Shown here: piece by piece, positions 2,220 through 51,895 of the stretch
Numbering within the stretch: the stretch's first letter is position 1
How the letters are laid out: each line of letters opens with the position of its first letter
NCBI GenBank assembly: GCA_937907455.1
Contig: CALESQ010000120.1
Span: forward strand, 35,447 to 99,446
Length of the DNA stretch: 64,000 nucleotides
Reading direction: 5' to 3'
From: an uncultured Caldilineales bacterium
GTDB taxonomy: Bacteria; Chloroflexota; Anaerolineae; JAAEKA01
Translations under genes and position numbers: made by a program
Notes under the pieces: generated by a model
What the model was told of the DNA's origin: nothing
Databases searched by the model: none
The model's input: the letters and a program-made list of their open reading frames with translations, nothing else

Positions 2220-3441
2220 TGCCGCGACGCTCCTGCAAGCCGGTGATGATACCTTCTTCGTGTAGCCGAGCGATGCCCGCGGCGTCGTAACCCAGTTCGG
2301 CGGCGATTTCATCGCTGTGTTCGCCCAGCCGCGGGGGCGCAATGCGGTAACTCATCGGCGTGCCAGAGAAGTGACCCGGAAAGGCCAGCGACTTGAACAT
2401 GCCCAGCCCGGGATGCTCCATTTCCACGATCATGCGCCGCGCCTGGATGTGCGGATCGTTGAGCGCCTCGTCCACGGCGTAGAGCGGGCCGCCGGGGATT
2501 TCCGCTTCGTTGAGCAGCTCAACCCATTCGTGCGCGGGCCGCGCGGCCAGCAATTCATCCAGGATCGGCGTCAACTGGTCACGGTTGACGTTGCGCAGCG
2601 CGTTGGTGGCAAAGAGGGGGTGCGTCACCAGCGATGGATCCGCGTGGATCACCTCGCAAAACTTGCGCCAGAGCCGTTCGCTGCCTGCGGCCACCACGAT
2701 CCACTTGCCATCGCCCGCCTTGAAGGGCTGATAGGGGGTAATGGTCGGGTGCTGGTTGCCGGTTTTGATCGGGGCGTTACCGCTGACCCAATAGTTGCTC
2801 GCCAGATAGCTCGTCCAATTGAGCTGCGATTCGACCAGGCTGATGTCGAGTGCCTGGCCGACACCGGTATGCTGGCGGGCCAGCAGCGCGGCCAGCACGC
2901 TGATCAGCGCGTAAAGACCCGCGCTGAAGTCGGCCATCGCCATCGGGAAGCGCATCGGGGGATCGCCCTGCTCGCCGGTCAGTTCCATCAAACCGCCCAT
3001 CGCCTGCGCCACGATGTCGAAGCCGCTGCGGTCGGCATACGGCCCGCTGCGGCCAAAGCCGGTGATGCTGACGTGGATCAACTTGGGGTTGCGCGCCAGA
3101 CAGGCTTCGGCAGAAAGGCCGTATTTGTCCAGCGAGGCTTGCCGCGGCAGGTTAATCAGGAAGACGTCGGCGTCGTCGAGCAGGCGATGGAAGATTTCCA
3201 GCCCCTCCGGCTTGGTGTAGTCCAGCGCCAGGCCGCGCTTGTTGCGGTTGGTGGAGAGGAAATAGCCGCTTTCACCCTCGATAAAGGGGGGGCCCCAGCC
3301 GCGACACACATCGCCGATGCCTGGCTGTTCGATCTTGATGACGTCTGCGCCCATGTCGCCGAGGTACATGCTGCATGTCGGCCCGGCCAGCGCCTGAGTA
3401 AGATCAACGACTTTGATATTTTGGAGAATGGTGGGGGTCAT
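2209..3441 (-). CDS. CoA-transferase family III (CaiB/BaiF/formyl-CoA transferase-like)
   Basis: 410 aa; N-terminal VVDLTQALAGPTCSMYLGDMGADVIKIE signature of family III CoA-transferases. Confidence 0.8.
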   Translation of the reverse strand: MTPTILQNIKVVDLTQALAGPTCSMYLGDMGADVIKIEQPGIGDVCRGWGPPFIEGESGYFLSTNRNKRGLALDYTKPEGLEIFHRLLDDADVFLINLPRQASLDKYGLSAEACLARNPKLIHVSITGFGRSGPYADRSGFDIVAQAMGGLMELTGEQGDPPMRFPMAMADFSAGLYALISVLAALLARQHTGVGQALDISLVESQLNWTSYLASNYWVSGNAPIKTGNQHPTITPYQPFKAGDGKWIVVAAGSERLWRKFCEVIHADPSLVTHPLFATNALRNVNRDQLTPILDELLAARPAHEWVELLNEAEIPGGPLYAVDEALNDPHIQARRMIVEMEHPGLGMFKSLAFPGHFSGTPMSYRIAPPRLGEHSDEIAAELGYDAAGIARLHEEGIITGLQERRGNGL

Positions 3442-3535
3442 AATGGTGAATGGTGAGCGGAAGGGAATGGCAGATTGGTATGCCTTCGGCGGGTAGATAG
3501 GTAGTTGCTGAATTTACGTCTGGCTGGTGTATAAA

Positions 3536-5352: not shown

Positions 5353-5470
5353 TTTTTCGCGTACGGGCAATGGTTGGAAAAATGGACAACCGAGAATTGT
5401 CCGGGTGAATTCCATGCACCAATTGCGCTTGCCGTGCAGCGATGTCAGTGTTACAATGCCGGTGATCACT

Positions 5471-5541
5471 ATGCAAGTAGACAAGTAGACAAGTAGACAA
5501 GTACACAAGTACACAAGTACACAAGTATGCAAGTAGACAAG
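5471..5541. repeat. 8-nt tandem repeat array (AGACAAGT/ACACAAGT/ATGCAAGT x9) in divergent mocA / chbG-like intergenic region
   Basis: direct reading; period 8; on the minus (mocA) sense strand reads CTTGTCTA/CTTGTGTA. Confidence 0.8.
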
Positions 5542-5609
5542 CCATACGGGTCACCTTTACTCTTTACCTCTTACTCCCAGCTCATTACTCCTTACTCTCT
5601 GCCTGCAAC

Positions 5610-6504: not shown

Positions 6505-6600
6505 GGGGGTGGATGTGTCCCGGTGGGCGCCCCGGTCTTCAAAATCGGTGGTGGGTGCCGCACAGGCAGCCACGGTGGGTTCGACTCCCATCCACTCCCG
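6505..6600 (+). tRNA. selC: tRNA-Sec (selenocysteine tRNA, anticodon UCA)
   Basis: Hand-folded: 8-bp acceptor stem (GGGGGTGG/CCACTCCC, one GU), 6-bp D-stem with 4-nt D-loop, anticodon loop CTTCAAA (UCA), long variable arm (~25 nt with stem), T-arm GTGGG-TTCGACT-CCCAT with GGTTCGACTCC identical to E. coli selC, discriminator G; 8/5 acceptor/T architecture typical of bacterial tRNA-Sec. Coordinates +/-2. Confidence 0.75.
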
Positions 6601-17470: not shown

Positions 17471-17761
17471 GTGTTTATGAACGACTCAACGCTTGCGCGG
17501 CTTTGGGAGGTCATTGAAGCCCGCAAAAGCCAGCAGCCTTCCGGCTCTTACACCGTGCATTTGCTGCAAGCTGGCGAGGACGAAATCCTGAAAAAGATCG
17601 GTGAAGAGGCTATCGAGGTGATAGTGGCCGCTAAAGGTCAGGGTGATGAGCGTGTGGTCTGCGAAATCGCGGACCTGTGCTACCATGTGATGATGCTGCT
17701 GGCGGTGCGCGGCCAATCGTGGCACGACGTGGCCGCCGAGCTGGAGCGCCGTCTTACCTAG
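17471..17761 (+). CDS. hisE: phosphoribosyl-ATP pyrophosphohydrolase
   Basis: 96 aa; LARLWEVIEARK...EEAIEVIVAAK. Confidence 0.85.
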   Translation: MFMNDSTLARLWEVIEARKSQQPSGSYTVHLLQAGEDEILKKIGEEAIEVIVAAKGQGDERVVCEIADLCYHVMMLLAVRGQSWHDVAAELERRLT

Positions 17762-17763
17762 CC

Positions 17764-19311
17764 ATGCGCATCGTTACCGTTGTTCTGCGCTGGAGCCTGT
17801 ATCTTGCTTTGTTGGTCGGCAGCGTTGCCGCGTGTACCTTCCGCCCTCAGCCGCAGCGGCCACAGAGTGAGGCAGCCACCACAACAGCGCAGCTTGAGCC
17901 AACTGTCAGCCCCACACCCACGGCCACTGCCTTGCCACCGGCCGTGCTGCAAGCGGGGGCATTGCCCGCTGGTCAGGTTATCTTTTCCGTGCAGCGTGCA
18001 GGTGAGGCAGGCGCGGGGCTTTGGCGTTTGAATGCCGATGGCTTGCAACTGCTGCGCTCCGATGTGGTCGCTTCGGCCTGGGACTGTGCGGACACCGCCA
18101 TGCCGAGCTGCGTGACGGTTGCCAGTGATGCCGGCCTCTATGCCTTTGATCCCATTAGCCGCAGTGTGCAGTTGTTGGATGTGCTGGATGGCTGGACGTT
18201 GCCGCCAGTTGCGGTTGCCGAACCGCCGATGCTCACCGAGCCTGCCGAGAGTCAACCCGCCGAGCCGGTGACGCTTACCATGTCTGCCGAGAGTATGCCT
18301 GCCGAGCCGGTGACGCTTACCATGTCTGCCGATAGCCCGTCTTTCGAGCCGCTGACGTTCACCGGGCCTGCCGAGAGTCTGCTCACCGAGCCGCTGACGC
18401 TCACCGTGCCCTTTGCCGTGCTGCCGTCGCCCACGCTGGCGCTTTCTGCTGATGGCAAAAGCCTGGCTGTGGCTGCGTTTAGCCAATTGCGCCTGTATGC
18501 GTTGGCTGAACCCGCTTTGCTGGCCGCGCTGCCTGCACCCAACCCCACCGAGATGGCTTGGTCGCCCGATGGTCAATGGCTGGCTGTGATAGCTGATGAC
18601 CGTGGCCGACGCGCCGTGTGGCTGTGGGGTGACGCTGCCGGACAGTTCACCTCGCTGGCGCAGATGGAGGCCGCGGCGCATCTGGCCTGGTCACCGGACA
18701 GCAGTCAACTGGCGTTTGACGCGCGTATGACCGCGGCTACTCCCAGCAATCAGGGCGACCAGTCTGATATTTTCTTGTGGCAGCGCGACAGCAACGAGAT
18801 TCGCAACGTCACCGAGCTGTTTCTCACCAACGGTTGGACGGATCCTGCCTATCAGATCGCGGCCTGGCTGCCGCAGTGGGAGCCAGATGGCATGGCCTTG
18901 CGCTATCTGCGCGGGTTGCCAGCCGATCCCACTACCTACGCGTGGGCACGCCAGACGTTGAGCGGCAATCGCTTTATCAGTATTTTGCCGTTGGCTGTAG
19001 AGCCGGGTGCGGGCTTTTATCCGCAGCAACCGGTTACCGGCCTATGGCTACGCCGCTTGCCGCGTGATGGTCGCGATTTGCTTCAGCAGAGTTTGGATGG
19101 CAATAGCTGGCAGGATGTCGGCGGTACCTTTGCCGAGATACGCAGCGTGGCGTGGCAACCAGCTACGGCCGCGGCGAAGGCTGCCTCACCCCGCCTGCTG
19201 ATCGCTGATCGGCAAAGCCTGCTGCTGCTTGATCCGGTAAGCAACGCCCTGAGCGGCCTGGCCGTTACCTGTGCAGCCTGCGAGATCAGCCACGCGGTAT
19301 GGTTGCCTTGA
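17764..19311 (+). CDS. lipoprotein with TolB/PD40-like beta-propeller repeats and an internal 14-aa tandem repeat
   Basis: ATG 17764 overlapping hisE stop; lipobox LVGSVAAC; AWSPDGQWLAV / AWSPDSSQLAF PD40-like motifs. Confidence 0.5.
   Translation: MRIVTVVLRWSLYLALLVGSVAACTFRPQPQRPQSEAATTTAQLEPTVSPTPTATALPPAVLQAGALPAGQVIFSVQRAGEAGAGLWRLNADGLQLLRSDVVASAWDCADTAMPSCVTVASDAGLYAFDPISRSVQLLDVLDGWTLPPVAVAEPPMLTEPAESQPAEPVTLTMSAESMPAEPVTLTMSADSPSFEPLTFTGPAESLLTEPLTLTVPFAVLPSPTLALSADGKSLAVAAFSQLRLYALAEPALLAALPAPNPTEMAWSPDGQWLAVIADDRGRRAVWLWGDAAGQFTSLAQMEAAAHLAWSPDSSQLAFDARMTAATPSNQGDQSDIFLWQRDSNEIRNVTELFLTNGWTDPAYQIAAWLPQWEPDGMALRYLRGLPADPTTYAWARQTLSGNRFISILPLAVEPGAGFYPQQPVTGLWLRRLPRDGRDLLQQSLDGNSWQDVGGTFAEIRSVAWQPATAAAKAASPRLLIADRQSLLLLDPVSNALSGLAVTCAACEISHAVWLP
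18244..18411 (+). repeat. 42-nt x4 in-frame tandem repeat inside lipoprotein gene (AES-PAEPVTLTMS units)
   Basis: direct reading of near-identical 42-mers. Confidence 0.7.
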
Positions 19312-20614: not shown

Positions 20615-20690
20615 TTGGTTTCGGTACGGGCGGCAGACTTGAGTCGTGCAGGTTGTCGCCTCACGCCGTCCTACTCAACCAGCGGAACGC

Positions 20691-20763
20691 TCATTCCCAA
20701 TTCTCAACTCTCAATTCTCCCTTCTCAACTCTCAATTCCCAATTCCCAATTTTCAACTCCCAT
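20691..20763 (+). repeat. 73-nt G-less heptamer-repeat tract (YTCYCAA x8) forming the entire purA-purB spacer up to the purB ATG
   Basis: direct reading; zero G on the sense strand; no Shine-Dalgarno. Confidence 0.8.
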
Positions 20764-25790: not shown

Positions 25791-27227
25791 TTATTCAGGA
25801 ATAATCGTCCAGCCGGGCCGGCCTTGCAGTTTCCACATGAAGGTTTCGTGGATCATGCGCTTCATCCAGGCGCCCGCCAGACCCATCTCCATGTGGGTGA
25901 CTTGCAGGTCGCGCCCGGCTTCGTTCGGGAAGCGGCGCTGATCCGGCACGACCGGATAGATGTTGATAACCACGGCTGCGCCATCGCGCAGCGAGTCGCC
26001 CATCGAGGCGATGCACGATGCGAACATCTCGGACATGCGCTCGTGGTGGGTCATGCGCCCCTTCTTGATCAGGTCAATCACGTTCAGCGCCACGACACGG
26101 CCAATGATGCCCGACACCATGCCGGTGCGCGGCGGCGCGGCAGTGATGGATGTGCCGTTGGGGGTGACATGGGGCATAGAAATGGGGCCAGGCGGGGCAA
26201 AGGCAATGCCCGCGGCAAAGATGTTGCGGTAGGTGGGGTTTTGGTACACCGAGGGCCAGGCATCGGGGTTTTCCACCAGCACTTCGTAGGGCAGGCCGTA
26301 GATGCCATCCGTCAGGATAAAGCCCGCCTTGTTGGTGAGCTTATCAGAAACATCCTGGCCGTCGCTGCCGATGTAGCGCAGCGGCGCGCCGGTGAATTGC
26401 GGGATCAGCATGGCAAAGTCATACGGCGTTTCACCGTAGTTGCCCTCGAAGTCTTCCCAGTGGATGCTGTTCGCCTCGACGCGATGTACCCCTTTTTGAA
26501 TCTCCCAGGCAATGTCGTAGTCTTTGAAGATCGAGTGGATGAAGTCCTCGCTGTGGTAGACCTTGCCGTGCTGACGCACGCTGACCCCGTGCACGCCGAA
26601 ATCGCCCAGCGCCTGCTCGTTGGAAAGCCAGGTGAGCTGCACGCGGTCGCGCACCCCCTGCTTCACCAGGTCGCGGTGAATGTTGATCAGATACTCGAAG
26701 CCCGCGCCCTGGCAGGTTGCGCCCGGATGGCCGGTGCCGATCACCATGCGGCTGGTCTCGCCCTTTTTCAGACGCTGCACGATCTCCAGATAGCGGTCGC
26801 GCGCCTCAATCGCGTGCGGCAGGGTGCAGATCGAATGGCTCAGGCCCGCTTTTGGCCCCAGACCGGGCGTGCCCTCGTAGTTCAGCTTGGGGCCGGTGGC
26901 AATGATCAGGTAGTCGTAAGGCTGGCGCAGCAGTGCGCCGTCATCTGCTTCCACCACCACATATTGATCCTGCGGGTCGGGGTGAATTTCCGTGGCCTTG
27001 CCAATCACCAGCTTGACGTGCATCCGGTCGTAAACCGGTTTTAGCTTGAAGGTAGTCTTTTGCGGGGCCATGTGGCCGATCCCGACCCAGACCCAGGAGG
27101 GCACAAATCCAAAGAAGTCATAGCGATTGATGACTGTAATATCATGCTCTTTGCCGAGCCGATTGCCAAGATACAATGCCGCTGTATGTCCGGCAAAGCC
27201 GGCACCGATCACCACAACTTTAGCCAT
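25791..27227 (-). CDS. sqr: sulfide:quinone oxidoreductase (FAD-dependent, SQR family)
   Basis: start at MAKVVVIGAGFAGHTAALYLG (GGAGG RBS); YDYLIIATGPKL matches the Aquifex-type SQR motif. Confidence 0.75.
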   Translation of the reverse strand: MAKVVVIGAGFAGHTAALYLGNRLGKEHDITVINRYDFFGFVPSWVWVGIGHMAPQKTTFKLKPVYDRMHVKLVIGKATEIHPDPQDQYVVVEADDGALLRQPYDYLIIATGPKLNYEGTPGLGPKAGLSHSICTLPHAIEARDRYLEIVQRLKKGETSRMVIGTGHPGATCQGAGFEYLINIHRDLVKQGVRDRVQLTWLSNEQALGDFGVHGVSVRQHGKVYHSEDFIHSIFKDYDIAWEIQKGVHRVEANSIHWEDFEGNYGETPYDFAMLIPQFTGAPLRYIGSDGQDVSDKLTNKAGFILTDGIYGLPYEVLVENPDAWPSVYQNPTYRNIFAAGIAFAPPGPISMPHVTPNGTSITAAPPRTGMVSGIIGRVVALNVIDLIKKGRMTHHERMSEMFASCIASMGDSLRDGAAVVINIYPVVPDQRRFPNEAGRDLQVTHMEMGLAGAWMKRMIHETFMWKLQGRPGWTIIPE

Positions 27228-27348
27228 AGAGGGCCTCCTGGAGAGAAACAGAGACAGGGGTGTTTTTGCAAACCACGGAGCCGCAGTAAACCGCATTCAC
27301 TCAGACGCGGTTTAGCCGGAAAGGTTACTTTTTCAGATGAAATGAAAG

Positions 27349-27377
27349 TTGACAAACTTTCCTGTCCTGATTATACT
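27349..27377 (+). promoter_or_regulatory. sigma70-type promoter of ilv leader (-35 TTGACA, 17-nt spacer, -10 TATACT)
   Basis: direct reading. Confidence 0.5.
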
Positions 27378-27417
27378 GCGCCTACGTTTGAGACAGGCAG
27401 TTTTTAGTTTATGTCCT

Positions 27418-27519
27418 ATGGCTACCACCGGTTCTACGCTCTTCAACCTCCTTGTCATCCTCATTAGTGTGCTCCTGGTACTTGCCGGGAGCCAATGGCA
27501 GCTGGGAACCGAGCGTTGA
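27418..27519 (+). CDS. ilvB leader peptide (33 aa, branched-chain-rich: MATTGSTLFNLLVILISVLLVLAGSQWQLGTER)
   Basis: run of 14 Leu/Val/Ile codons in 15; lies between the promoter and a rho-independent terminator upstream of ilvB. Confidence 0.55.
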   Translation: MATTGSTLFNLLVILISVLLVLAGSQWQLGTER

Positions 27520-27552
27520 ACCACTTGTAGCAACATCACAAGCATGTGCGAA

Positions 27553-27583
27553 ACCCCTCCCAGCCGCGGAGGGGTTTTTTATT
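27553..27583 (+). terminator. rho-independent attenuator terminator upstream of ilvB
   Basis: CCCCTCC-cagccgcg-GGAGGGG followed by TTTTTTATT. Confidence 0.65.
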
Positions 27584-27741
27584 GAATTGGATAGCAGCCG
27601 GTTAGCTAAATCAAGTCGCTTTCCGGAGTATGGCAAGCCGATCCAGGCGATGAAGCCTCTATCTGATCTGCCCAGCAAGGGCGGGCTCAGGTTGAGGCTT
27701 TTTGTATCTGGTTGGGCAAACACAGGAAAGGTGTGATTCAC

Positions 27742-29460
27742 ATGGAGAAGACAGGCGCTCAAATCGTTTGGGAGACCATTTTGCGCGAAGGCGTGGATAC
27801 GGTCTTCGGCTATCCCGGCGGTGCGACTTTGCCCATTTATGACGCTATGCCGGCATATCCCATCCGCCATGTTCTGGTGCGCCACGAACAGGCTGCCGTC
27901 CACATGGCCGAAGGCTGGGCGCGTGCCACGGGTAAGGTCGGTGTGGCGCTGGCTACCAGCGGCCCCGGGGCTACCAATCTCGTCACTGGTCTGGCAAATG
28001 CCATGATGGATTCGATCCCGATTGTGGCAATCACCGGTCAGGTGGCTACTCATCTGCTGGGCGGCGACGCCTTTCAGGAAACCGACGTGACCGGCATCAC
28101 CTTGCCGATCACCAAGTACAACTATCTCATCACCGACATTGCTGATCTGGGTGAGGCGCTGGTTGAAGCGTTCTATATTGCGCGTAGTGGGCGCCCCGGC
28201 CCGGTGCTGGTGGATATTTGCAAAGACGTACAAAACAGCAAAATTGACTGGGAATACTCTGCTGAGTTGACTCGCCCCGGTCTGGTGAAGGTGTTGCGCG
28301 AACAGCCCGACGCCGTGGTTGCCGCTGCCACGCTGATCAATCAGGCACAGCGCCCGCTGATTATTGCCGGCCACGGTGTGCAGATGGGCGAGGCTCAGGC
28401 TGAATTGATGGAGTTGGCAGAGCGGGCTGAAATTCCCGTGGTCACCACGTTGCTGGGTATTGGTGTCATTACCGAGAACCACCGCCTGGCCCTGGGCATG
28501 GGCGGCATGCACGGCGAGGCTGCCACCAATCACGCCGTGCAGGAATGCGATGTGTTGATAGCTGTGGGAATGCGCTTCGATGACCGTATCACCGGACGGT
28601 TAGATCAGTTTGCACCCAAAGCTAAAGTGATCCACTTCGAGCTGGATCCCTCCGAGGTGGGCAAGAACGTCAAACCCGCGGTGACTGTGCTGGGCGACTG
28701 CAAGCATACCCTGGGGCAACTGCTGCCGAACATCGAACCAAAGCAGCATCAGCAATGGCTGACAACCATTCATGAATGGCAGGACACCACCGGCAAGGTA
28801 GACATTGCCAACCAGGAAGTAGATGAGCTGATCCCGCCTTTTGTGATGCGCCAACTGTGGTATGCCACGCAGGGCAATTGCACGGTGGTGACAGACGTAG
28901 GCCAGCATCAGATGTGGGAGGCCCAATACTTCACCCATCTGCGCCCGGGCCAGTTGATCACCAGCGGCGGGCTGGGCACGATGGGCTTCGGCGTGCCTGC
29001 GGCTGTGGGAGCCAAGATTGGCCGCCCTGACCAATTGGTTTGGGTGATGGTGGGCGATGGTGGCTTCCAGCAAACCATGCAGGAATTGGGCACCATTATT
29101 CAGGAAAATGTCGGGGTGAAAATTGGTATCATCAACAACGGCTTTTTAGGCATGGTGCGTCAGTGGCAGCAGTTCTTCTATGAAAAGCGCTATGCCGGCA
29201 CGCCGATGATCAGTCCAGATTACATGAAGCTGGCTGATGCCTACGGCATTCCTGCATTGCGCGTGACCAAAAACGATGAGGTTTTTTCGGCCATGCAGCA
29301 GGCCAACGCTCATGATGGCCCCTTCCTGATCGAATTCCGTGTGATGGAAGAAGTAAACGTGTACCCGATGGTGGCCCCCGGCGCGGCCGTCGGTGATATG
29401 ATCCGCCGCCCCGGCCCCGCCATTGTCCAGGGCTATTCCGGTGTGCAACCGAGTTGGTAG
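27742..29460 (+). CDS. ilvB: acetolactate synthase large subunit
   Basis: start [27 protein letters not shown]; ThDP-enzyme motifs. Confidence 0.9.
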
Positions 29461-29696
29461 ATTGGTAAGTAGTCAGGAGTAAGTAGTGAGCAGTTGAAGA
29501 GTCTGTGTGAAAGCGTTGCAGAGAATTCCGAAGTGGCAATTTTACCCGTTGAGTTGCCGTAAGCTGGTTAACCCTGGCTTTAGGCGATTTGCCACTTCTG
29601 AATTCTGAATTTCGATTTCTTTAACGTTTTTCAGAGATTGTTTAACTCCTGACGATTTACTTCTTACTCCTTACTGTCTGCAAAAGGATTGAGACC
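29461..29696 (+). promoter_or_regulatory. 236-nt highly structured ilvB-ilvN spacer (nested inverted repeats; GGAGTAAGTAG / CTTACTCCTTAC flanks; 17-bp palindrome GAATTCCGAAGTGGCAA...TTGCCACTTCTGAATTC)
   Basis: direct reading; ilvB and ilvN are usually adjacent. Confidence 0.4.
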
Positions 29697-30230
29697 ATGA
29701 AACACACAGTCGTCGCATGGATGGAAGACCGCCCCGGTGTTTTGTCCCGCGTATCCAATTTGTTCCGCCGTCGTGGATTTAACATCGAAAGCCTGGCCGT
29801 TGGCCCCAGCGAAACTTCGGGCATCAGTCGCATGACCTTTGTGGTGGATGGCGATGAGCGCATGGTGGATCAGGCCGTCAAGCAACTGGAAAAGCAGATT
29901 GACGTGACCCGCGTCGAGGATGTCACCGATCAGCCGGTGGTCGTGCGCGAGCTGGCGTTGATCCGGGTGCGCACCGACACACAAACCCGCACCGAGATCA
30001 TGCAGATCGTGGATGTGTATCGTGCCCAGATTGTGGACATTGCTCTCGATTCGCTGATTATTCAGGTGGTGGGTGCGGAAGAGCGCATTAACAGCCTGAT
30101 TGATCTGCTGGACCACTATGGCATTCGTGAGATGGTGCGTACCGGACGCGTAGCCATCACCCGCGGGCGCGCTACACTGGAAAGCGCACAGCATAATGGC
30201 AACGGCAATGGCCGCAAGATGGGAATTTAG
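29697..30230 (+). CDS. ilvN: acetolactate synthase small (regulatory) subunit
   Basis: [42 protein letters not shown] domain. Confidence 0.85.
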
Positions 30231-30303
30231 TGCAATAGTACGCAGGTGAGATGGTGAGATAGCGGTTGTTCTATAGTCGCGGCACTGCTTTTGCCAGGCC
30301 TCG

Positions 30304-30408
30304 CTACACATTCACCAACTCACTCACTATCTCACTATCTTACTATCTCACTAACTCACTAATTCACTATCTCACTCCCACACTCCCACACTATCTCTAC
30401 TTTACCCC
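30304..30408 (+). repeat. 105-nt G-less octamer-repeat tract (CTCACTAT x~10) in ilvC 5' leader
   Basis: direct reading; preceded by complementary purine-type copy GGTGAGATGGTGAGATAG (30246-30263). Confidence 0.8.
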
Positions 30409-30417
30409 GAGGAATTC

Positions 30418-31422
30418 ATGGCAACCTTATTTTACGAAAAAGACGCAGATCTCTCCCGCCTGGCAGGCCGCAAAGTCGCTGTAATCGGTTATGGCAGCCA
30501 GGGGCACGCCCACGCGCTCAACCTGAAAGACAGCGGCGTAGACGTGATGGTAGGGCTTTATCCCAATTCGCCAAGCTGGAGCAAGGCTGAGGCCGCCGGT
30601 CTCACCGTCAAGACGGTGGAGCAGGCCGCGGACGAAGCTGATATCATCATGGTGGTAATCCCCGACACGGTGCAGGCGCGTGTGTACAAGCAAAGCATCG
30701 AACCGGCTCTGCGTCCCGGCAAAACATTGATGTTCGCCCACGGCTTCAACATTCGCTTCGGCCAGATTACGCCACCCGATTTTGTGGATGTGAGCATGAT
30801 TGCACCCAAGGCCCCCGGCCATCGTGTGCGTGAGGTTTATCAGGACGGTCAGGGTACACCCGCGTTGGTGGCCGTGCATCAGGATGCTTCCGGCCACGCT
30901 TTGGCCGATGCCATCGCTTACGGCGCGGGGGTCGGCTGTGCCCGCGCTGGTCTGCTGCTCACTACTTTCACCGAAGAAACCGAAACCGACTTGTTTGGCG
31001 AGCAGGCCGTGCTCTGCGGTGGCGTTAGCGAGTTGGTAAAATCCGCCTTTTATACCCTGGTGGATGCCGGTTATCAGCCTGAGGTGGCTTATTTTGAGTG
31101 TATGCACGAGCTGAAGCTGATCGTAGACCTGTTCTACCGCGGCGGCCTGAGCTACATGCGCTACTCGGTGAGCGACACCGCCGAACATGGCGATTATCAC
31201 AGCGGCCCCAAAGTGGTCACCGACGAGACCCGTGCCGCCATGAAGGGCATTTTGGCCGATATTCAGAGCGGCGCTTATGCCGAGGATTGGATTGAAGAAA
31301 ACGCCAAGGGGCGTCCCTGGTTCGATGATGTGCGCGCCCGTGAGCGCGATCAGCAGATCGAAACCGTAGGCCGTCAACTGCGCAGCATGATGCCCTGGCT
31401 GCATCCCGTGGAAGTCGAATAG
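30418..31422 (+). CDS. ilvC: ketol-acid reductoisomerase
   Basis: [40 protein letters not shown]. Confidence 0.9.
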
Positions 31423-31437
31423 TTGGTACGAGGAATA

Positions 31438-31648
31438 AGTACACAAGTAGACAAGGAAGAAGTACACAAGCAGACAAGGAAGAAGTACACAAGTAGACAA
31501 GGAAAAAGTACACAGGCAGATGTAGATAAGGAAGAAGTACAGAATACATAAAAATTCCCAGTCACCTGTGTACTTGTTTACCTGTCTACCTGTCTACCTG
31601 TATACTTGTTTACCTGTCTACCTGTCTACCTGTGTACTTGTCTACTTT
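31438..31648. repeat. paired inverted repeat arrays between ilvC and leuA: purine-type 23-nt units (GTACACAAGTAGACAAGGAAGAA x4) then pyrimidine-type octamers (CTACCTGT / CTACTTGT x~10)
   Basis: direct reading; arrays are partially complementary (e.g. GTACACAGG / CCTGTGTAC). Confidence 0.75.
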
Positions 31649-31664
31649 CCCGAAGGAGCCCTCC

Positions 31665-33308
31665 ATGCCCTCACAACCTGATCGCGATGTGATCCTGATT
31701 TTCGATACCACCCTGCGTGACGGCGAGCAGTCCCCGGGTGCTACGCTGACCACGCAGGAGAAACTGGAAATAGCCCGGCAGCTTGCCCGCCTCGGCGTGG
31801 ATATCATCGAAGCCGGTTTCCCGGCGGCCTCGCCTGGCGATCTTGAGGCTGTGCACCAGATCGCCGCGACCATCGGCTGTGAGCAACGCCTGGACAAGTT
31901 CGGCAATCCCGCTGCGCCGCCGGTGATTGCTGGTCTGGCCCGCGCTAACCATAACGACATCAACGCGGCCTGGCAGGCAGTGCAGGCCGCGCAGCGCCCG
32001 CGCATTCATACCTTCCTCGCCACATCGCCCATTCACATGGAGCACAAGCTGAAGATGACACCGGAACAGGTGGTGGAGCGCGTGCGTGAGATGGTGGGTT
32101 ATGCCCGCAGCCTGTGCCCCGACGTGGAGTTTAGCCCGGAGGATGCCGGGCGCAGCGACCCTCGCTTCCTGTATCAAGTGCTGGCCGTAGCCATTGAGGC
32201 CGGTGCTACCACGCTTAACATCCCCGACACAGTGGGCTACACTGTGCCCGCAGAGTATGGCAAGCTGATCCGCGATATCCGCGAAAACACTCCGGGAGCC
32301 CAAAACGTTGTCATCTCCTGCCACTGTCACAACGACCTGGGACTGGCGACAGCCAACACCCTGGCCGGCATCGAAAACGGCGCCCGCCAGGTAGAGGTGA
32401 CGGTGAACGGCATCGGTGAGCGTGCCGGCAACACCAGCTTGGAAGAGATCACCATGGCGCTTTACACCCGCCATCAGGTCTACGAAACCGACACCAACAT
32501 TGTCACCCATGAGATTCATCGCAGCAGCGACATGGTCAGCCGCTACACCGGCATGGTGGTACAGCCCAACAAGGCCATTGTCGGCGCCAATGCCTTCGCG
32601 CACGAGGCCGGCATCCATCAGGACGGCATGTTGAAGCACAAGCGCACCTACGAGATCATGGACGCGGGCACTATCGGCCTGAACCAAAGCAAACTGGTGT
32701 TGGGCAAGCATTCCGGTCGCCACGCCTTCCGTCTGCAACTGGAGCAGATGGGCTATAAGTTGGATGACAAAGACCTGGATGAGGTGTTTCGCCGCTTCAA
32801 GGAGCTGGCCGACAAGAAAAAAGTAGTTACCGACGGCGATCTGCAAGCCCTGGTAGGTGATGAACTCTACAAGCCGCCGGAGACCTGGCAGGTAGAGGAC
32901 GTGCAAGTGAGCTGCGGCACCACGGTGATCCCCACAGCCGTGGTACGCCTGCGCTACGTTGCCACCGGCGAAATCGTCACCGACGCCGGTTTCGGCACCG
33001 GCCCGGTAGATGCGGTGTATCAGGGTATCAACCGGCTGGTAGGTGTTCCCAACCGCCTGGTCGAGTTCGTGATCCAGGCCATTGATCAGGGCATGGACGC
33101 CGTGGGTGATGTGACCATTCGCATCGAAGCTAATGAGCTGATCGGCACGGTGGAGCGTGCGCAGGGCGGCCGCGGCCAGCGCATCTTCTCCGGACGTGGC
33201 ATTGATACCGACATCGTGGTAGCCAGCGCCAAAGCCTACATGCAGGCGTTGAACAAGATGCTGGCTGCCAAAGAAGAGCGCGAGTCGGTGCTGGCTTTGG
33301 GCGTATAG
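31665..33308 (+). CDS. leuA: 2-isopropylmalate synthase (long form with C-terminal regulatory domain)
   Basis: [42 protein letters not shown]; E. coli LeuA-like C-terminal domain. Confidence 0.85.
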
Positions 33309-33450
33309 CGAAGCGGCAAGCGGTAATCGGAGCAGAACATGCCGATATTCCATCCTGCTGCCCCTTCCTGCCATCTGCCCCTCCATCATTAACCACCCGT
33401 CCATTCTCGTTCTCACCTCTCAATTCTCACCTCTCCCCAAGGAGCCTCTC

Positions 33451-33621
33451 ATGTCCCACCCATCTCCCGCCTCGAACGCCAAACCGGCCAATCCCGTGCT
33501 GGTCGAATGGCTGGTAAAGCAGTACGATCAGCCTCAGCAGGTCCATTGTGGTCCCGAAGCCCTGGCCTGGGACATGCAGGGCCTGCAACAGGCCACAACC
33601 CTCCGCCCCAGTCTGAAATAG
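33451..33621 (+). CDS. possible small protein (56 aa) between leuA and gltB
   Basis: ATG preceded by CCCCAAGGAGCCTCTC, the same RBS context as leuA/ybdK; pyrimidine-repeat leader upstream; no homology support. Confidence 0.3.
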   Translation: MSHPSPASNAKPANPVLVEWLVKQYDQPQQVHCGPEALAWDMQGLQQATTLRPSLK

Positions 33622-33813: not shown

Positions 33814-36800
33814 ATGAAACCAAGCCTTAGCGGGCCAGGCCTTGCAGCGCCTGGCCCACTCTACGACCCCTCTTTTGAGCATGATGCCTGTGGCACCGGC
33901 TTTGTGGCTCAGCGCAGCGGTGCGCGCAGCCATCGTGTGCTGCAATTGGCCCTGGAGGCGCTGTGTAACCACGCCCACCGCGGCGCTGTGGCGGCTGATG
34001 GCCGCTCCGGTGATGGCGCTGGCATCCTCACCCAACTGCCGCACAAGCTGATCGCGCGCGATCTGGCCCGGCTTGGCGTGCGTACCCCCGCCCCGGGCGA
34101 TGTCGCCGTAGCGATGGTGTTCATGCCTCTGCGCAATCTGGTACACCGCGCTCGCAGCGAGACGCTGCTGCAGCAGGCCATTGGTGAATTCGGCTTGGAA
34201 TTCCTGGGCTGGCGTGAAGTCCCCGTCAACCTTGAGGCGCTGGGCGAATGGGCGATCAGCCTGCGACCCTACATCGTTCAGGCCTTTGTCGGGCGTCCCC
34301 CAGCGCTGGCTCGCGGCGACAGCTTCGAGCGTGCCCTTTACCTGGTGCGCAAACGCGCTACCCAGCTTTGCTGGGCCGAGGGCATCAGCAATTTCTATAT
34401 TGCCTCCTTTTCGGCTAAAACCATCGTCTACAAGGGGCTGTTCATGGCCCCGCAACTGGCTAATTTCTATCTGGACATGGCCGATGCCGATTTCGAGACC
34501 GCGCTGGCGGTTTTTCACCAGCGCTACAGCACCAACACCTTTCCCACCTGGGAGCGCGCCCAGCCTTTCCGTTTGCTCTGCCATAACGGCGAGATCAACA
34601 CCCTGCGCGGCAACATCAATTGGATGCGTGCCCGTGAAGCGGATCTCGTGCGTTCGGCTCGGCCTTATTTCGGCGAAGCAGTCAGTTATTTGGCGCCGGT
34701 GATCAGCGAGCGCGGCAGCGATTCCGCCATGCTCGACAACGCCCTCGATCTGTTGGTGCAGTCGGGCCGTGACATTCGCCACGCCATGCTGATGCTGGTG
34801 CCGCGCGCCTGGGAGCACGATCCCGAACTGTCTCCCGAGGCCCGCGCCTTCTATCACTATCATGCCTGCCTGCAGGAACCCTGGGATGGCCCCGCGGCGC
34901 TGGCCTTCACCGATGGCACGGTAGTGGGTAGCACACTTGACCGTAACGGCCTGCGTCCGGCGCGCTATCTGACCACCGCCGACGGGCTGGTGATTATGGC
35001 CTCGGAAGCTGGTTCCGTACACATTGATGAGCGCGACGTTACCGCCAAAGGCCGCCTTGGCCCGGGCGAAATGTTGGCCGTAGATACCGCGGGCGGCGAA
35101 ATGCTGGCTACCGGCGCAATCATCGAGCGCCTGGCCGCGGCCTATCCCTATCAACGCTGGCTGGACGAAAATCTGGTGCGGCTGGAAGATTTGGTGACGC
35201 CGGAGGAAAGCAGCTACGTGCCGCCGGTGACCGTCAGCACCCGCATGTTGCCTTCGCGTCGCCGCAATCTTGCCGCCGCTTCAGAGATCGCCCCTGCCGC
35301 CTCTGCTGCTGACAGCTCGCTTACCGCGCTGCAAGCAGCCTTTGGCTATAATCGTGAAGAATTGGTAGTGCTGTTTCGCCCGATGTGGCAGCAAGGCGCA
35401 GAGGCTATCGGCTCGATGGGCGATGACACGCCTTCGGCTGCGCTCAGCAGGCTTCCCCGTCCCCTGTTCCATTACTTCTATCAACGGTTTGCCGAAGTCA
35501 CCAACCCCCCGATTGATCCGCTGCGCGAGGCTCAGGTAATGTCGCTGGCGCAACGCGTCGGACGACGCAGCAGCCTGCTTGGCCGCGGGCCTGAGGCTGC
35601 GCGCCTGGTGGAGCTGGCCGGTCCGGTACTCAGCAACCAGCACATTCAGGCGTTGCGCGAGCTAAAGCAATACCTCGGCCCGGAGCGCGCCGAAGAGTTT
35701 CAGACCGCCACGCTCGATACCACCTGGCCGGTGGTGGATGGCGTAGATGGGCTGGAGGCGGCGGTGAAGCGGCTGTGCAATCAGGCAGTGGCCTCGGTGA
35801 AATCAGGCGTTAGCTTGCTGATCCTCAGCGACCGCGCCCTGCAAGCCCGACGCACGCTGATTCCTGCGCTGCTGGCTACCTCAGCCGTACATCAGCGTTT
35901 GATTCAGGCAGGTGTGCGCAACCAAGTGAGCCTGGTGATTGAAACCGGCGAAGCGCGCGATGTGCATCACCTGGCTGCATTGGTGGGCTTTGGGGCCAGC
36001 GCTGTGAACCCCTGGCTGGCGCTGCGTACCGTGGAAGACGAGGTGCGTAGCGCGGGTCGCCATGCCGAAGGTATCAGCGTGGCCGAGGGGGTTGAGAACT
36101 ATCGCAAAGCGTTGGAAAAGGGCCTGCTCAAAATCATGTCCAAGATGGGCATTACCACCGTAGACAGCTACTGCGGCGCGCAGATTTTTGATGTATTGGG
36201 TCTGGCGCAGGATGTGGTGGATCGTTACTTCCCCGGCACACCGGCGCGCCTGGGTGGTCGTGGCCTGGCCGACATCGCAGCCGACGTGCTGGCTTGGCAC
36301 GCCGCGGCTTATCCTGCCGGTGATGCATCCGCCGCTTTGGCCAGCTATGGCTTGTTCAAGTTCAAGCGTGACGGCGAATATCACAGCTATAATCCCGACG
36401 TAGTGCGCGCCCTGCACGAGACAACAGGCCTCTCCCTCCCCTCTTCCACCACCAAAGCAGCCCGGGGTGAGGGTGATTCTTCCTCTGCGTCAGGGGCCGG
36501 GGATGAGGGTGACTCTCCCTCTGCGTCAGAGGCCGGGGGTGAGGGCCTCTCCCCTGCTTACCGTCGCTACACCGAGCTGGTACAGGGGCGGCCTCTCACC
36601 ACGCTGCGCGACCTGCTGGACTTTGCTCCGCGCCGCGACCCTGTTGCATTGGACGAGGTAGAAGCACCGGAGGCTATTTTGCGCCGCTTCTCCACCGCGG
36701 CCATGTCGCACGGGGCGCTCAGCGGCATCACTCACGAAACGTTGGCCGTCGCTATGAATCGCCTGGGCGGAGCCTCCAACAGCGGCGAGGGCGGTGAGGA

Positions 36801-38568
36801 CGAAGCCCGCTTTGCTGATGAACGCAACAGCAAGATCAAACAAGTAGCCTCTGGGCGCTTCGGTGTTACACCGGCCTATCTGATGTCTGCTCAAGAGCTG
36901 CAAATCAAGATGGCGCAAGGTTCCAAGCCGGGCGAAGGCGGCCAGTTGCCGGGCCATAAGGTCACGGACGAGATTGCCCGACTGCGCCACAGCACCCCCG
37001 GCGTGGCGTTGATCTCCCCGCCGCCCCATCACGATATCTACAGCATCGAGGACCTGGCGCAACTGATTTTCGATCTGAAGCAGGTAAACCCTGATGCCGC
37101 GGTGTCAGTCAAGCTGGTGAGTGAAGCAGGTGTCGGCACGGTAGCTGCCGGAGTCGCCAAAGGCCACGCCGATCTAATCCACCTCAGCGGTGCCGATGGT
37201 GGTACAGGGGCATCGCCTCTTAGCAGCATCAAACATGCTGGTGGGTCGTGGGAATTGGGTCTGGCCGAGACGCAGCATACCCTGCTCACCAACGGTTTGC
37301 GCAGCCGCGTGCGTGTGCGCGTGGATGGCGGCTTTCAGTCGGGCCGTGATGTGCTGATCGCGGCCTTGCTGGGTGCGGATGAATTCAGCTTCGGCACCGC
37401 CGCTCTGATCGCCGTGGGCTGTAAAATGGCTCGCGCTTGCCACACCAACACCTGTCCCGTGGGCGTGGCTACGCAGCGCGCCGATCTGATTGCCAAATTC
37501 CCCGGCCAACCGGAGCATCTGATGGTATTTCTGCATCAGGTAGCTGAGGAGGTGCGGCAATTGTTGGCGCGGCTGGGTTATCGCACGTTACAAGAGGTAA
37601 TCGGCCACGCCGAGCTGCTCACCCAGGCAGTGAGCGGTGAAGCCGCCAGTTGGCTGGATTTGGAGCCGCTGCTGTGGACGCCAGACACCGGTCGCCCGCG
37701 TCGTGCCGTGGACGAGCGCAACGCGTTGCTGGCAGGTTCGGCTCTGGGCGACCGTCTGGCGGAGGACGCGCTGGACGATCTGGCTGATTTCAGCGCTCCG
37801 GTGCGACTGCGCTATGCCATCAGCAACACTGATCGCACAGTTGGGGCGCGGCTGGCCGGGCAAATCGCGCGGCAGCATGGTAATGTTGGCTTGCCTGCGG
37901 GCAGCATCACCGCCGAGTTCGAGGGTACAGCGGGCCAAAGTTTCGGTGCGTTTCTGTGCCACGGCATTCACCTGCATCTTACCGGTCAGGCCAACGACTA
38001 CATCGGCAAGGGTATGGGCGGCGGCGAAATTGTAGTTCGTCCGCGTGTTGATGCCGCCTATGTGTGGCATGAAAACGTTGTCATCGGCAACACGGCTCTG
38101 TATGGCGCTACTGATGGCGCGCTCTATGCCGCAGGCCGCGCCGGTGAGCGTTTTGCCGTGCGCAACAGCGGTGCGCAGGCAGTCGTGGAAGGCGTAGGCG
38201 ACCACGGCTGCGAATATATGACCGGCGGTGTAGCGGTGATCCTGGGTGACACCGGACGCAACTTCGGCGCGGGCATGACCGGCGGCCTGGCCTATGTCTA
38301 CGATCCTGCAGATGCCTTGCCCGGTCGCTACAATGCTCAGTTGATCACTCTGCGCCGTGTGCAGCGCGTCGCACACGAAAAACAACTTCGTGCGCTCATC
38401 CGTCATCATGCACAAACCACCGGCAGCCCGCGTGCCCGCGCCATCCTTAGCGACTGGGACACCGAGCTGGGCAACTTCTGGTTGGTGATCCCCAGAGACG
38501 CCGTCGCCGCCATTGAAGCCGTCAACGAAGGCGCAGAGAATGAAGCGCGCGAGGGGATAACAGGATGA
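33814..38568 (+). CDS. gltB: glutamate synthase large subunit
   Basis: start MKPSLSG...CGTGFVAQ (Ntn amidotransferase Cys1 after Met-processing), central, FMN and GXGXG domains; 1584 aa. Confidence 0.9.
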   Translation: MKPSLSGPGLAAPGPLYDPSFEHDACGTGFVAQRSGARSHRVLQLALEALCNHAHRGAVAADGRSGDGAGILTQLPHKLIARDLARLGVRTPAPGDVAVAMVFMPLRNLVHRARSETLLQQAIGEFGLEFLGWREVPVNLEALGEWAISLRPYIVQAFVGRPPALARGDSFERALYLVRKRATQLCWAEGISNFYIASFSAKTIVYKGLFMAPQLANFYLDMADADFETALAVFHQRYSTNTFPTWERAQPFRLLCHNGEINTLRGNINWMRAREADLVRSARPYFGEAVSYLAPVISERGSDSAMLDNALDLLVQSGRDIRHAMLMLVPRAWEHDPELSPEARAFYHYHACLQEPWDGPAALAFTDGTVVGSTLDRNGLRPARYLTTADGLVIMASEAGSVHIDERDVTAKGRLGPGEMLAVDTAGGEMLATGAIIERLAAAYPYQRWLDENLVRLEDLVTPEESSYVPPVTVSTRMLPSRRRNLAAASEIAPAASAADSSLTALQAAFGYNREELVVLFRPMWQQGAEAIGSMGDDTPSAALSRLPRPLFHYFYQRFAEVTNPPIDPLREAQVMSLAQRVGRRSSLLGRGPEAARLVELAGPVLSNQHIQALRELKQYLGPERAEEFQTATLDTTWPVVDGVDGLEAAVKRLCNQAVASVKSGVSLLILSDRALQARRTLIPALLATSAVHQRLIQAGVRNQVSLVIETGEARDVHHLAALVGFGASAVNPWLALRTVEDEVRSAGRHAEGISVAEGVENYRKALEKGLLKIMSKMGITTVDSYCGAQIFDVLGLAQDVVDRYFPGTPARLGGRGLADIAADVLAWHAAAYPAGDASAALASYGLFKFKRDGEYHSYNPDVVRALHETTGLSLPSSTTKAARGEGDSSSASGAGDEGDSPSASEAGGEGLSPAYRRYTELVQGRPLTTLRDLLDFAPRRDPVALDEVEAPEAILRRFSTAAMSHGALSGITHETLAVAMNRLGGASNSGEGGEDEARFADERNSKIKQVASGRFGVTPAYLMSAQELQIKMAQGSKPGEGGQLPGHKVTDEIARLRHSTPGVALISPPPHHDIYSIEDLAQLIFDLKQVNPDAAVSVKLVSEAGVGTVAAGVAKGHADLIHLSGADGGTGASPLSSIKHAGGSWELGLAETQHTLLTNGLRSRVRVRVDGGFQSGRDVLIAALLGADEFSFGTAALIAVGCKMARACHTNTCPVGVATQRADLIAKFPGQPEHLMVFLHQVAEEVRQLLARLGYRTLQEVIGHAELLTQAVSGEAASWLDLEPLLWTPDTGRPRRAVDERNALLAGSALGDRLAEDALDDLADFSAPVRLRYAISNTDRTVGARLAGQIARQHGNVGLPAGSITAEFEGTAGQSFGAFLCHGIHLHLTGQANDYIGKGMGGGEIVVRPRVDAAYVWHENVVIGNTALYGATDGALYAAGRAGERFAVRNSGAQAVVEGVGDHGCEYMTGGVAVILGDTGRNFGAGMTGGLAYVYDPADALPGRYNAQLITLRRVQRVAHEKQLRALIRHHAQTTGSPRARAILSDWDTELGNFWLVIPRDAVAAIEAVNEGAENEAREGITG
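36464..36560 (+). repeat. ~37-nt x2.5 tandem repeat inside gltB encoding a Gly/Glu/Asp/Ser-rich linker (GEGDSSSASGAG DEGDSPSASEAG GEG), REP-element-like sequence
   Basis: direct reading; shares GGGGTGAGGG / CCTCTCCCC motifs with the REP-like element. Confidence 0.5.
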
Positions 38569-38636
38569 CAAGGTGACAGGGTGACTATTTACTCCCTCCC
38601 CTTGTCACCCCCTCACCCCCATCCCCTCTTTACCCA

Positions 38637-38692
38637 CCTGTCTACCTGTCTACTTATCTACTTATCTACTAGTCTACATGTCTACCTCTCTT
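38637..38692 (+). repeat. octamer repeat array (CTACCTGT / CTACTTAT x7) in G-poor leuC leader
   Basis: direct reading; whole 38586-38710 leader is pyrimidine-rich. Confidence 0.75.
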
Positions 38693-40746: not shown

Positions 40747-40830
40747 ACCGCTCACTTCTCACTTTACTGGATGCTGGTTACTACTTACATCTTACTTCTT
40801 ACTACTCCCTCCTCCCCAAGGATCTCCCTA

Positions 40831-43975: not shown

Positions 43976-44096
43976 CTTTAGTTTGCCCTCACCCCCGGCC
44001 CCTCTCCCAGGGGGAGAGGGGAGTGTCTGCTTTCCGGTTCTCTCCGCTTTCCGGTTCCCTCTTTTTCTGGTTCCCTCTCCCTTTGGGAGAGGGTTA
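43976..44096. repeat. REP/MITE-like palindromic element, copy B (with internal triplicated CTTTCCGGTTCCCTC sub-repeat)
   Basis: CCCTCACCCCCGGCCCCTCTCCCAGGGGGAGAGGGG ... GGGAGAGGGTTAGGGTGAGGG; between convergent cimA and membrane-protein gene. Confidence 0.6.
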
Positions 44097-44114
44097 GGGT
44101 GAGGGCTGCTTCCT

Positions 44115-51825: not shown

Positions 51826-51860
51826 TTCTGCCTCCTTGCTGCCATGCTCGTGTCAACAGC

Positions 51861-51895
51861 AAAAAGCTCCGGCCTTCGCGCCGGAGCTTTTTTAT
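51861..51895. terminator. bidirectional rho-independent terminator between convergent S1 gene and elp3-like gene
   Basis: AAAAAGCTCCGGCcttcgcGCCGGAGCTTTTTT. Confidence 0.6.

Follow-up and report, generated by a model that had tools for sequence, protein, structure and literature searches.

Tandem arrays fill the spacer between ilvC and leuA

The window, as the whole 64,000-nt stretch of DNA analysed in this work is termed, carries an ilv-leu operon in which ilvB, ilvN, ilvC and leuA were assigned with NCBIfam models, and downstream of leuA follow an ORF of 56 aa, gltB and leuC (Table 1). The spacer between ilvC and leuA is 242 nt long and is filled by two arrays of tandem repeats, consisting of a G/A-rich array on the ilvC side (77% purine, 13% C) and a C/T-rich array on the leuA side (71% pyrimidine). 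Analysis with TRF placed 3.7 copies of a 23-nt unit at 31431–31514, with 93% matches, and these super-units are themselves composed of GTASACAR-type 8-mers. The 3’ array, located at 31564–31645 by the same program, consists of 10.2 copies of the 8-nt unit ACCTGTCT with a 32-nt super-period that is repeated 2.6 times at 94%. A first-pass annotation of the same DNA had described four copies of a purine-rich 23-mer followed, about 15 nt later, by an octamer array running up to the leuA ribosome binding site. Both arrays are present as described, although the last of the four 23-mers is degenerate, about 22 nt (31542–31563) separate the arrays, and the octamers end at 31647, 4 nt short of the Shine-Dalgarno (SD) sequence.

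Both arrays consist of head-to-tail units within the 5–11-nt range of short-unit satellites and are longer than expected by chance. A CRISPR array was ruled out, as the units are contiguous and have no unique spacers between them. Sequences matching GTCTACNTGTCTAC with at most two mismatches occur 16 times within the window against 0.08 expected, and the GTCTAC core of this unit is found at three window loci.

Table 1. Positions of the operon genes, the ilvC-leuA hairpin and the related arrays within the window
Feature	Position	Strand	Description
ilvB	27712–29460		NCBIfam
ilvN	29697–30230		NCBIfam
ilvC	30418–31422		NCBIfam
leuA	31665–33308		NCBIfam
ilv-leu leader-peptide attenuator	27349–27583		5’ of ilvB; promoter, leader ORF, hairpin with T tract
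ilvC stop codon	31420–31422	+	TAG; hairpin domain begins 8 nt further on
5’ arm of ilvC-leuA hairpin	31431–31541	+	G/A-rich array, GTACACAAGTAGACAAGGAAGAA ×3.7 and a degenerate copy
Apical loop	31542–31563	+	GAATACATAAAAATTCCCAGTC, 22 nt
3’ arm of ilvC-leuA hairpin	31564–31647	+	C/T-rich array, 8-mer ACCTGTCT and variants ×10.2
leuA SD	31652–31658	+	GAAGGAG, just beyond the long stem
leuA start codon	31665–31667	+	ATG
ilvB-ilvN sister module	29464–29681	+	Fills spacer; spacer MFE −92.5 kcal/mol
ilvB-ilvN G-rich arm	29464–29493	+	GGTAAGTAGTCAGGAGTAAGTAGTGAGCAG
ilvB-ilvN C-rich arm	29646–29681	+	CTCCTGACGATTTACTTCTTACTCCTTACTGTCTGC
ilvN-ilvC sister module	30245–30397	+	GGTGAGATGGTGAGATAG (30245–30262) pairs with start of (CTCACTAT)n (30323–30397)
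5’ UTR sister module	5474–5598	+	(CAAGTAGA)×8.5 (5474–5541), then (CTTTACT)×6.3 (5555–5598)
gltB-leuC spacer	38566–38691	+	Small G-arm/C-arm hairpin, 38566–38585 with 38603–38620
Solitary C-rich 7-nt array	20686–20762	+	ATTCTCA type ×9, directly 5’ of start codon
Solitary C-rich 7-nt array	33411–33435	+	TCTCACC ×3.6, 5’ of SD of the 56-aa ORF
Solitary C-rich 7-nt array	40778–40806	+	TTACTAC ×4.1, 5’ of SD and start
CACCATT repeat	3442–3456	−	×2 on minus (sense) strand, directly 5’ of minus-strand gene 2209–3441

The two arrays are predicted to pair into a long imperfect hairpin

Both arms consist of units from a single 8-nt family, repeated in tandem but in opposite orientations. They share 24 inverted-repeat pairs (GTACACAGG/CCTGTGTAC among them) and form a predicted hairpin of approximately 217 nt and 79 bp. 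Folding of the sense RNA gave a minimum free energy (MFE) of −77.8 kcal/mol, with a z-score of −5.0 against dinucleotide shuffles. Because some pairing between a purine and a pyrimidine arm is expected from their composition, the arms were additionally shuffled one at a time. The observed energy of −73.1 compares with −41.9 ± 4.4 for these controls (z = −7.0), none of 100 being as low, and the arms are therefore complementary beyond what their purine/pyrimidine composition provides. When the arrays were instead rebuilt from shuffled units, the observed energy was matched in 3 of 100 trials. The proposal of the first-pass annotation that the two halves pair imperfectly into a long hairpin is thus well supported, and the comparison with shuffled controls that it had put forward as a check found the spacer far more stable, yet with the antisense strand folding better still.

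The antisense strand of the spacer folds to −97.6 (z = −6.9), while calculation with DNA parameters gave −38.6 (z = −5.1) for the hairpin. The antisense fold was the better one in 11 of 15 modules, the ilvB-ilvN modules being strongly opposite. This difference arises from A·C mismatches of the sense strand that turn into G·U pairs on the antisense strand, so that pairing of the sense RNA is not specially optimised, and the energy of the fold alone cannot tell which transcript is relevant or whether the DNA itself matters. RNAalifold analysis of four orthologous spacers, three of which are nearly identical, identified no pair with a two-sided compensatory change among 54.

Within the predicted stem, helices of up to 11–16 bp are separated by bulges, and the duplex attains the approximately two helical turns associated with cleavage by RNase III. 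The predicted ensembles leave the SD region of leuA largely free of pairing, with moderate to high accessibility. Translational coupling through unmasking of the SD gained no support as a general mechanism, as truncating the 5’ arm by 15 or 30 nt changed the predicted accessibility little in all cases except the ilvC-leuA spacer of L003, an Ardenticatenaceae relative described below.

The operon attenuator lies upstream of ilvB

Attenuation and an antisense promoter had both been listed among the possible roles of the spacer in the first-pass annotation. The very stable stem directly 5’ of leuA is what an attenuator or terminator for this gene would present. However, the stem has a G+C content of only about 40% and is followed by CTTTCCCGAAGGAG with no U tract, the terminator scan lists no terminator within the spacer, and the spacer has neither a leader ORF nor an alternative antiterminator. 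Canonical terminators, consisting of a hairpin and a T tract, are present at operon ends elsewhere in the window (e.g. 51855–51891). A scan of the spacer against Rfam gave no T-box, leader or riboswitch at gathering score, the only matches being to plant miRNA hairpin models at 23–30 bits against gathering scores of 64–96.

A leader-peptide attenuator for the operon is instead already present 5’ of ilvB. It comprises a strong promoter-like site (TTGACA-17-TATACT, 11/12, 27349–27377), a leader ORF of 33 aa that is rich in Leu, Val and Ile (MATTGSTLFNLLVILISVLLVLAGSQWQLGTER, 27418–27519), and a CCCCTCC...GGAGGGG hairpin with TTTTTTATT (approximately 27552–27583), the last of which was missed by the terminator scan and is visible in the sequence. 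The ilvC-leuA hairpin is not the branched-chain amino-acid attenuator of the operon. With regard to promoters, a scan of the loop for internal or antisense sites returned none apart from a single weak match (9/12) created by the array itself, and no minus-strand promoter-like site is found within the spacer. That the hairpin serves as an attenuator or terminator for leuA, or as an antisense promoter, is hardly credible on this evidence.

The same layout recurs at other sites in the window

At least five spacers or leaders of the window share the layout of the ilvC-leuA spacer. The stem of the ilvB-ilvN module begins 3 nt past the ilvB stop codon, with a G-rich arm opening with GGTAAGTAG and a C-rich arm closing with CTTACTCCTTACTG. 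In the ilvN-ilvC module only the beginning of the C-rich array is paired, and its remainder is unpaired as far as the SD. Recurrence of the purine-then-pyrimidine arrangement both before ilvC and in the ilvB-ilvN spacer had been noted in the first-pass annotation, and the arms concerned were located at both sites. The 5’ UTR module lies 3’ of a promoter-like site (TTGCCG-17-TACAAT, 5429–5457) and 5’ of an ATG at 5610. In the gltB-leuC spacer, the small hairpin is followed by an unpaired (ACCTGTCT)×7 array at 38636–38691, the unit of which is that of the ilvC-leuA spacer. Further C-rich arrays of 7-nt units stand alone before gene starts, and the CACCATT pair on the minus strand shows that the C-rich orientation tracks the direction of transcription.

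Repeat units are replaced between relatives while the layout is kept

The best matches to IlvC came from two uncultured Anaerolineae metagenome-assembled genomes (MAGs), L001 (91%) and L002 (84%), and an Ardenticatenaceae MAG, L003 (73%). Within the ilvC-leuA spacer, the window and L001 share the unit AAGTAGAC and a nearly identical apical loop, L001 having the same hairpin with fewer units. The same spacer of L003 has an identical layout built of a different unit, GGAGTGA with CTCCCCAC, and that of L002 contains two non-repeat hairpins instead. The ilvB-ilvN units are GTAAGTAG with CTTACTCC in the window, TTGGTAGA with ACCAATCT in L001 and CGGTAAA in L002. Similarly, the ilvN-ilvC units are GGTGAGAT in the window, three copies of TTGGTAGA with six of TCTACCAA in L002, and CAGTAAT in L003. 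Judged by sequence comparison, the three orthologous spacers, each across three to four genomes, have had their sequence replaced and their architecture kept. Beyond these three spacers, related Anaerolineae and Ardenticatenaceae genomes show the same layout in further spacers, built of unrelated units.

Comparison of the window with L001 shows a divergence of 35.5% at the third codon positions of ilvC, whereas alignable positions in the ilvC-leuA spacer diverge by only about 6%, and the final 58 nt ahead of the ATG show no difference at all. An IlvC identical to that of the window is encoded in GCA_040275545.1, on contig JBEOKG010000118.1. Among contigs with the identical protein, the units nevertheless vary. 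L081 has one additional octamer, and both L082 and L084 have one 23-mer fewer together with a rearranged right arm. Copy number is thus polymorphic between close strains, as in satellites that evolve by slippage, and the copy numbers of the two arms change independently.

Three of the five contigs with identical ilvC (L083, L084 and L085) each end inside the repeat arrays, and such spacers therefore fragment short-read assemblies between genes. At the end of L085 (Logan contig SRR30274994_306619, 1375–1510), the left arm GTACACAGG continues into the reverse-complemented loop TGACTGGGAATTTTTATGT, the pattern expected of a segment inverted between the 9-nt inverted repeats at 31508–31516 and 31565–31573. 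The contig stops there, and the inversion may be either a real flip or a fold-back artefact. The gltB-leuC spacer also differs between relatives. In L001 (15860–15934) it has a long G-rich arm, (AAGTAGAC/AAGTAAAC)×9.4, and a degenerate C-rich arm, and of these arms the window (38566–38691) keeps only the C-rich (ACCTGTCT)×7 array, alongside a different small hairpin. Arms have thus been gained and lost independently.

These observations bear on a non-adaptive explanation, in which slippage-prone 7–8-nt repeats would build up in spacers that tolerate them, inverted copies would arise and stay alike through template switching at quasi-palindromes during replication, and the hairpins would have no function of their own. 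Variation of copy number among strains with identical IlvC, assemblies that break within the array and the wholesale swapping of units between close species are all consistent with such an origin, as is the inverted loop of L085, which is expected where arms recombine or fold back. The absence of two-sided compensatory changes in the RNAalifold analysis and the frequently better fold of the antisense strand point in the same direction. Against it stand the low divergence of the spacer relative to ilvC third codon positions and the retention of the layout at three orthologous spacers, in addition to the positional evidence presented below.

Modules abut the upstream stop codon with the G-rich arm first

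Gene calls in the related loci were made with a home-made codon-likelihood model and are approximate; this model replaced a GC3 and RNY caller, which picked antisense ORFs. Arrays of 5–12-nt units, identified using TRF, occur at a density of 1.69 per kb of intergenic DNA in Anaerolineae loci and 3.27 in Ardenticatenaceae loci, compared with 0.44 in other phyla. When located no more than 40 nt from a start, arrays have the C-rich sequence on the sense strand in a ratio of 14:1, and G-rich arrays are located 43–154 nt upstream of starts.

All co-directional spacers of 60–260 nt were included in a folding survey, with a strong fold defined as z ≤ −3. In the close lineage 21 of 48 spacers (44%) folded strongly, and the 5’ arm was G>C rather than C>G in a ratio of 20:0 (binomial p = 2e-6). 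The corresponding values were 23% and 12:4 for other Chloroflexota, and 16% and 7:6 for other phyla. The main stem begins 0–8 nt past the stop codon in all 14 folded spacers inspected, with the distance from stem to start ranging between 1 and 93 nt. Eight of these spacers have 36–96 nt of slack, and the probability of such abutment arising by chance, estimated as a product, is approximately 6e-7. Distances that are fixed on the stop side and variable on the start side make the placement directionally asymmetric, which would be unnecessary for a palindrome acting purely at the DNA level.

Metagenome contigs were scanned for exact occurrences of CTGTCTACCTGTCTACCTGT (at least 120 stretches; (CTGTCTAC)n arrays). 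Approximately one third of the listed matches, being low-GC eukaryote-like CTAT/CTGT microsatellites (e.g. sample Ga0126342), were excluded, leaving 71 prokaryote-like loci among the matches listed. The gene model, having been trained on the window, was too unreliable for these contigs, and only a test of partner position that does not depend on strand was therefore applied. Among the matches listed, the C-rich array has a strong complementary array on its 5’ side in 19 loci and no locus has such a partner on the 3’ side, although some loci are duplicates of one organism and the effective number is below this count. Given that a hairpin reads alike on both strands, the polarity belongs to the module itself. 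A further 29 of the 71 loci, again among the matches listed, have no partner array, as is the case for several arrays of the window, and the hairpin is therefore not obligatory.

The first-pass annotation had proposed a recurring structured inter-cistronic module within the operon, a description that holds and extends further, to at least five sites of the window and to related genomes. The ilvC-leuA spacer is not a one-off and appears to belong to a class of spacer elements that is specific to this uncultured Anaerolineae lineage. The layout of the class is a stop codon, 0–8 nt, a G-rich arm, a loop, a complementary C-rich arm, optional unpaired C-rich repeats, the SD and the start codon.

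The frequency of solitary arrays would suit the non-adaptive explanation, in which no hairpin is required. However, stems that abut the stop codon in all 14 spacers inspected, eight of which offer ample room for placement elsewhere, and the strict polarity in both the folding survey and, among the matches listed, the metagenome loci are at odds with it. An origin purely as a by-product of slippage and template switching is overall considered somewhat unlikely.

The placement of C-rich arrays near starts raises two further alternatives. In the first, the G-poor repeats adjacent to the SD would constitute a periodic platform for a multi-domain RNA-binding protein, for instance ribosomal protein S1 or a protein of the Csp, KH or CsrA-like type, through which translation of the following cistron would be set, with the G-rich arm acting as a sequestering anti-leader. 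The 14:1 bias within 40 nt of starts, which follows gene orientation on the minus strand also, the regular 7–8-nt period and the over-represented GTCTAC core shared by three window loci would all fit such a platform, and a comparable proposal exists for TAACTGA repeats directly 5’ of starts in Beggiatoaceae (PMC4679880). The units themselves differ greatly, however (ACCTGTCT, CTCACTAT, TTACTCC, ATTCTCA, TCTACCAA, GATTACT and CTCCCCA), so that no single binding motif is evident between spacers, and no candidate protein emerged. A binding platform is distinctly unlikely.

The second alternative is a conjectural device for Rho-dependent polarity, in which the C-rich array would be a loading site for Rho that is masked by the first-transcribed G-rich arm, and read-through into leuA would need the hairpin or upstream translation. 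Both the 3’ arm and the additional unpaired arrays are C>G tracts of 60–100 nt and in this respect have the composition found at rut sites, and a G-first polarity is what kinetic masking would demand. However, long unpaired C-rich arrays also stand directly before essential genes, such as that at 38636–38691 before leuC, and under this scheme would terminate transcription constitutively. Such a device is quite improbable.

Relation to known repeats and intercistronic hairpins

Cyanobacterial STRRs are heptamer direct repeats that occur mostly in non-coding DNA. The arrays described here are likewise short, heptamer-type direct repeats in non-coding DNA, and as with STRR and TAACTGA repeats they are found directly 5’ of starts on the sense strand. 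TAACTGA repeats are known from Beggiatoaceae, Cyanobacteria and Bacteroidetes, where they occur within a few nt 5’ of starts in variable copy number, and a post-transcriptional role has been proposed (PMC4679880). These systems use one or a few fixed units per genome, whereas here each spacer has its own unit, none of which is STRR1-3 or TAACTGA, and their hosts belong to phyla other than the present one. In addition, 169 sets of TAACTGA repeats in the Maribeggiatoa genome are direct and one is indirect (PMC4679880). In contrast, about half of the arrays described here have a complementary partner with which they form a long stem.

Long simple sequence repeats (SSRs) with 5–11-nt units have been surveyed previously (Mrazek et al. 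2007, summarised in PMC4679880). Within the Chloroflexota, Chloroflexus aurantiacus contains abundant heptamer satellites of (GATAGRA)n (PMC6749651), and both Chloroflexus and Roseiflexus have an excess of oligopurine/oligopyrimidine runs (PMC4060949). The present arrays resemble these long SSRs and satellites, as far as the summarised accounts describe them, in being intergenic, composed of 7–8-nt units, longer than chance and presumably driven by slippage. Those accounts, to the extent that they are summarised, deal with arrays only and do not include paired inverted hairpins, a G-first polarity, abutment of stop codons or orientation relative to starts.

With respect to hairpins, the REP of E. 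coli malE-malF and the hairpins of the Rhodobacter puf operon are intercistronic stabilisers, acting as exonuclease barriers that set the stability of mRNA segments. REPs are a conserved, dispersed sequence family of 35–40 nt linked to RAYT transposases. Like REP/BIME elements, the modules are extragenic imperfect palindromes inside transcription units, and are predicted non-terminating stem-loops located just past a stop codon. They differ in that no dispersed 35–40-nt consensus is shared, the GTCTAC-type unit alone recurring (at three loci), and in having stems of up to about 80 bp whose tandem-repeat sequence is in most cases unique to the spacer. Hairpins processed by RNase III lie between cistrons in phage T7 early mRNA and in rplJL-rpoBC. 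These too are long, imperfect intercistronic duplexes with internal loops and with the ribosome binding site outside the stem, as predicted here; unlike the present modules, they are not built of tandem repeats.

Chloroflexus satellites, heptamers 5’ of starts and intercistronic stabiliser hairpins are each already known. In the literature searched, the coverage of which was incomplete, no account was found for Chloroflexota of paired inverted arrays that have a fixed polarity and directly adjoin stop codons.

A putative intercistronic stem-loop of the ilvBNC-leuA mRNA

Among the roles suggested in the first-pass annotation, RNA processing or stability is the most plausible, and is regarded as putative. 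The hairpin would be a non-terminating intercistronic stem-loop that packages the spacer, provides a site for stabilisation or processing and leaves the ribosome binding site free, a reading that is held tentatively and given slightly less than an even chance. Acting on a polycistronic ilvBNC-leuA mRNA, the stem could package a long, naked and C-rich untranslated spacer, thereby keeping it out of reach of Rho and of RNases specific for single strands. The long duplex may act as a barrier to exonucleases or serve as a substrate for RNase III, such that the ilvBNC and leuA segments would have separate fates. The SD and its G-poor leader would meanwhile remain accessible for independent initiation at leuA, and the arrays themselves would grow and shrink through replication slippage. 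The fixed polarity could have either of two reasons: the sequence adjoining the SD may have to stay G-poor, or a C-rich arm, if transcribed first, may be exposed to Rho.

A broader extension is that operons of Anaerolineae and Ardenticatenia use self-renewing ‘zipper’ hairpins, built in situ from tandem repeats and always with the G-rich arm first, which would replace REP-type elements as insulators between cistrons and, through rapid copy-number variation, adjust how strongly adjacent core-metabolism genes are expressed relative to one another in different strains. This extension is rather unlikely to hold in full.

Anaerolineae-type Chloroflexota are abundant in sludge, soil and sediments, and the expression of operons in these organisms is almost uncharted. 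If functional, the hairpins would define a simple rule for spacers (stop, G-arm, loop, C-arm, SD) that could sharpen the prediction of gene starts and operons in MAGs and would explain assembly breaks between genes. They would also represent a natural case in which an RNA structure is maintained while slippage keeps rebuilding its sequence. As a concrete regularity, the strict G-first polarity lends itself to testing against constraints from Rho loading or from the ribosome binding site.

Other features of the window

The ORF between leuA and gltB is conserved at 56–57 aa (window 33451–33621, L001 10863–11036, L081 6042–6212). It contains the motif EWL.K.YD.PQ..CGPEALAWD, has no NCBIfam match and is annotated as a gene in the public assembly. 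A hairpin element of a different kind, CCCTCACCCCC...GGGGGTGAGGG enclosing CCCTCTCC...GGAGAGGG, occupies the convergent intergenic region at 43990–44110, where it flanks a 16–17-nt repeat (GCTTTCCGGTTCCCTCC ×2.9), and a very similar element is located just 3’ of ilvC in the Chloroflexota MAG L047. Inside gltB, at 36462–36545, a 36-nt repeat is present in 2.3 copies with GGGGTGAGGGTGA, and resembles the GGGTGAGGG hairpin element; by this resemblance it may be a low-complexity protein insertion derived from that element. Another tandem repeat, of 42 nt in 4.6 copies (18217–18410), encodes a 14-aa repeat within the ORF at 17677–19311. The only Rfam match to pass within the window is a tRNA-Sec gene at 6505–6599 (RF01852, 71.2 bits), and the ORF at 25791–27296 gives a weak match to a selenoprotein-type sulfide:quinone reductase model.
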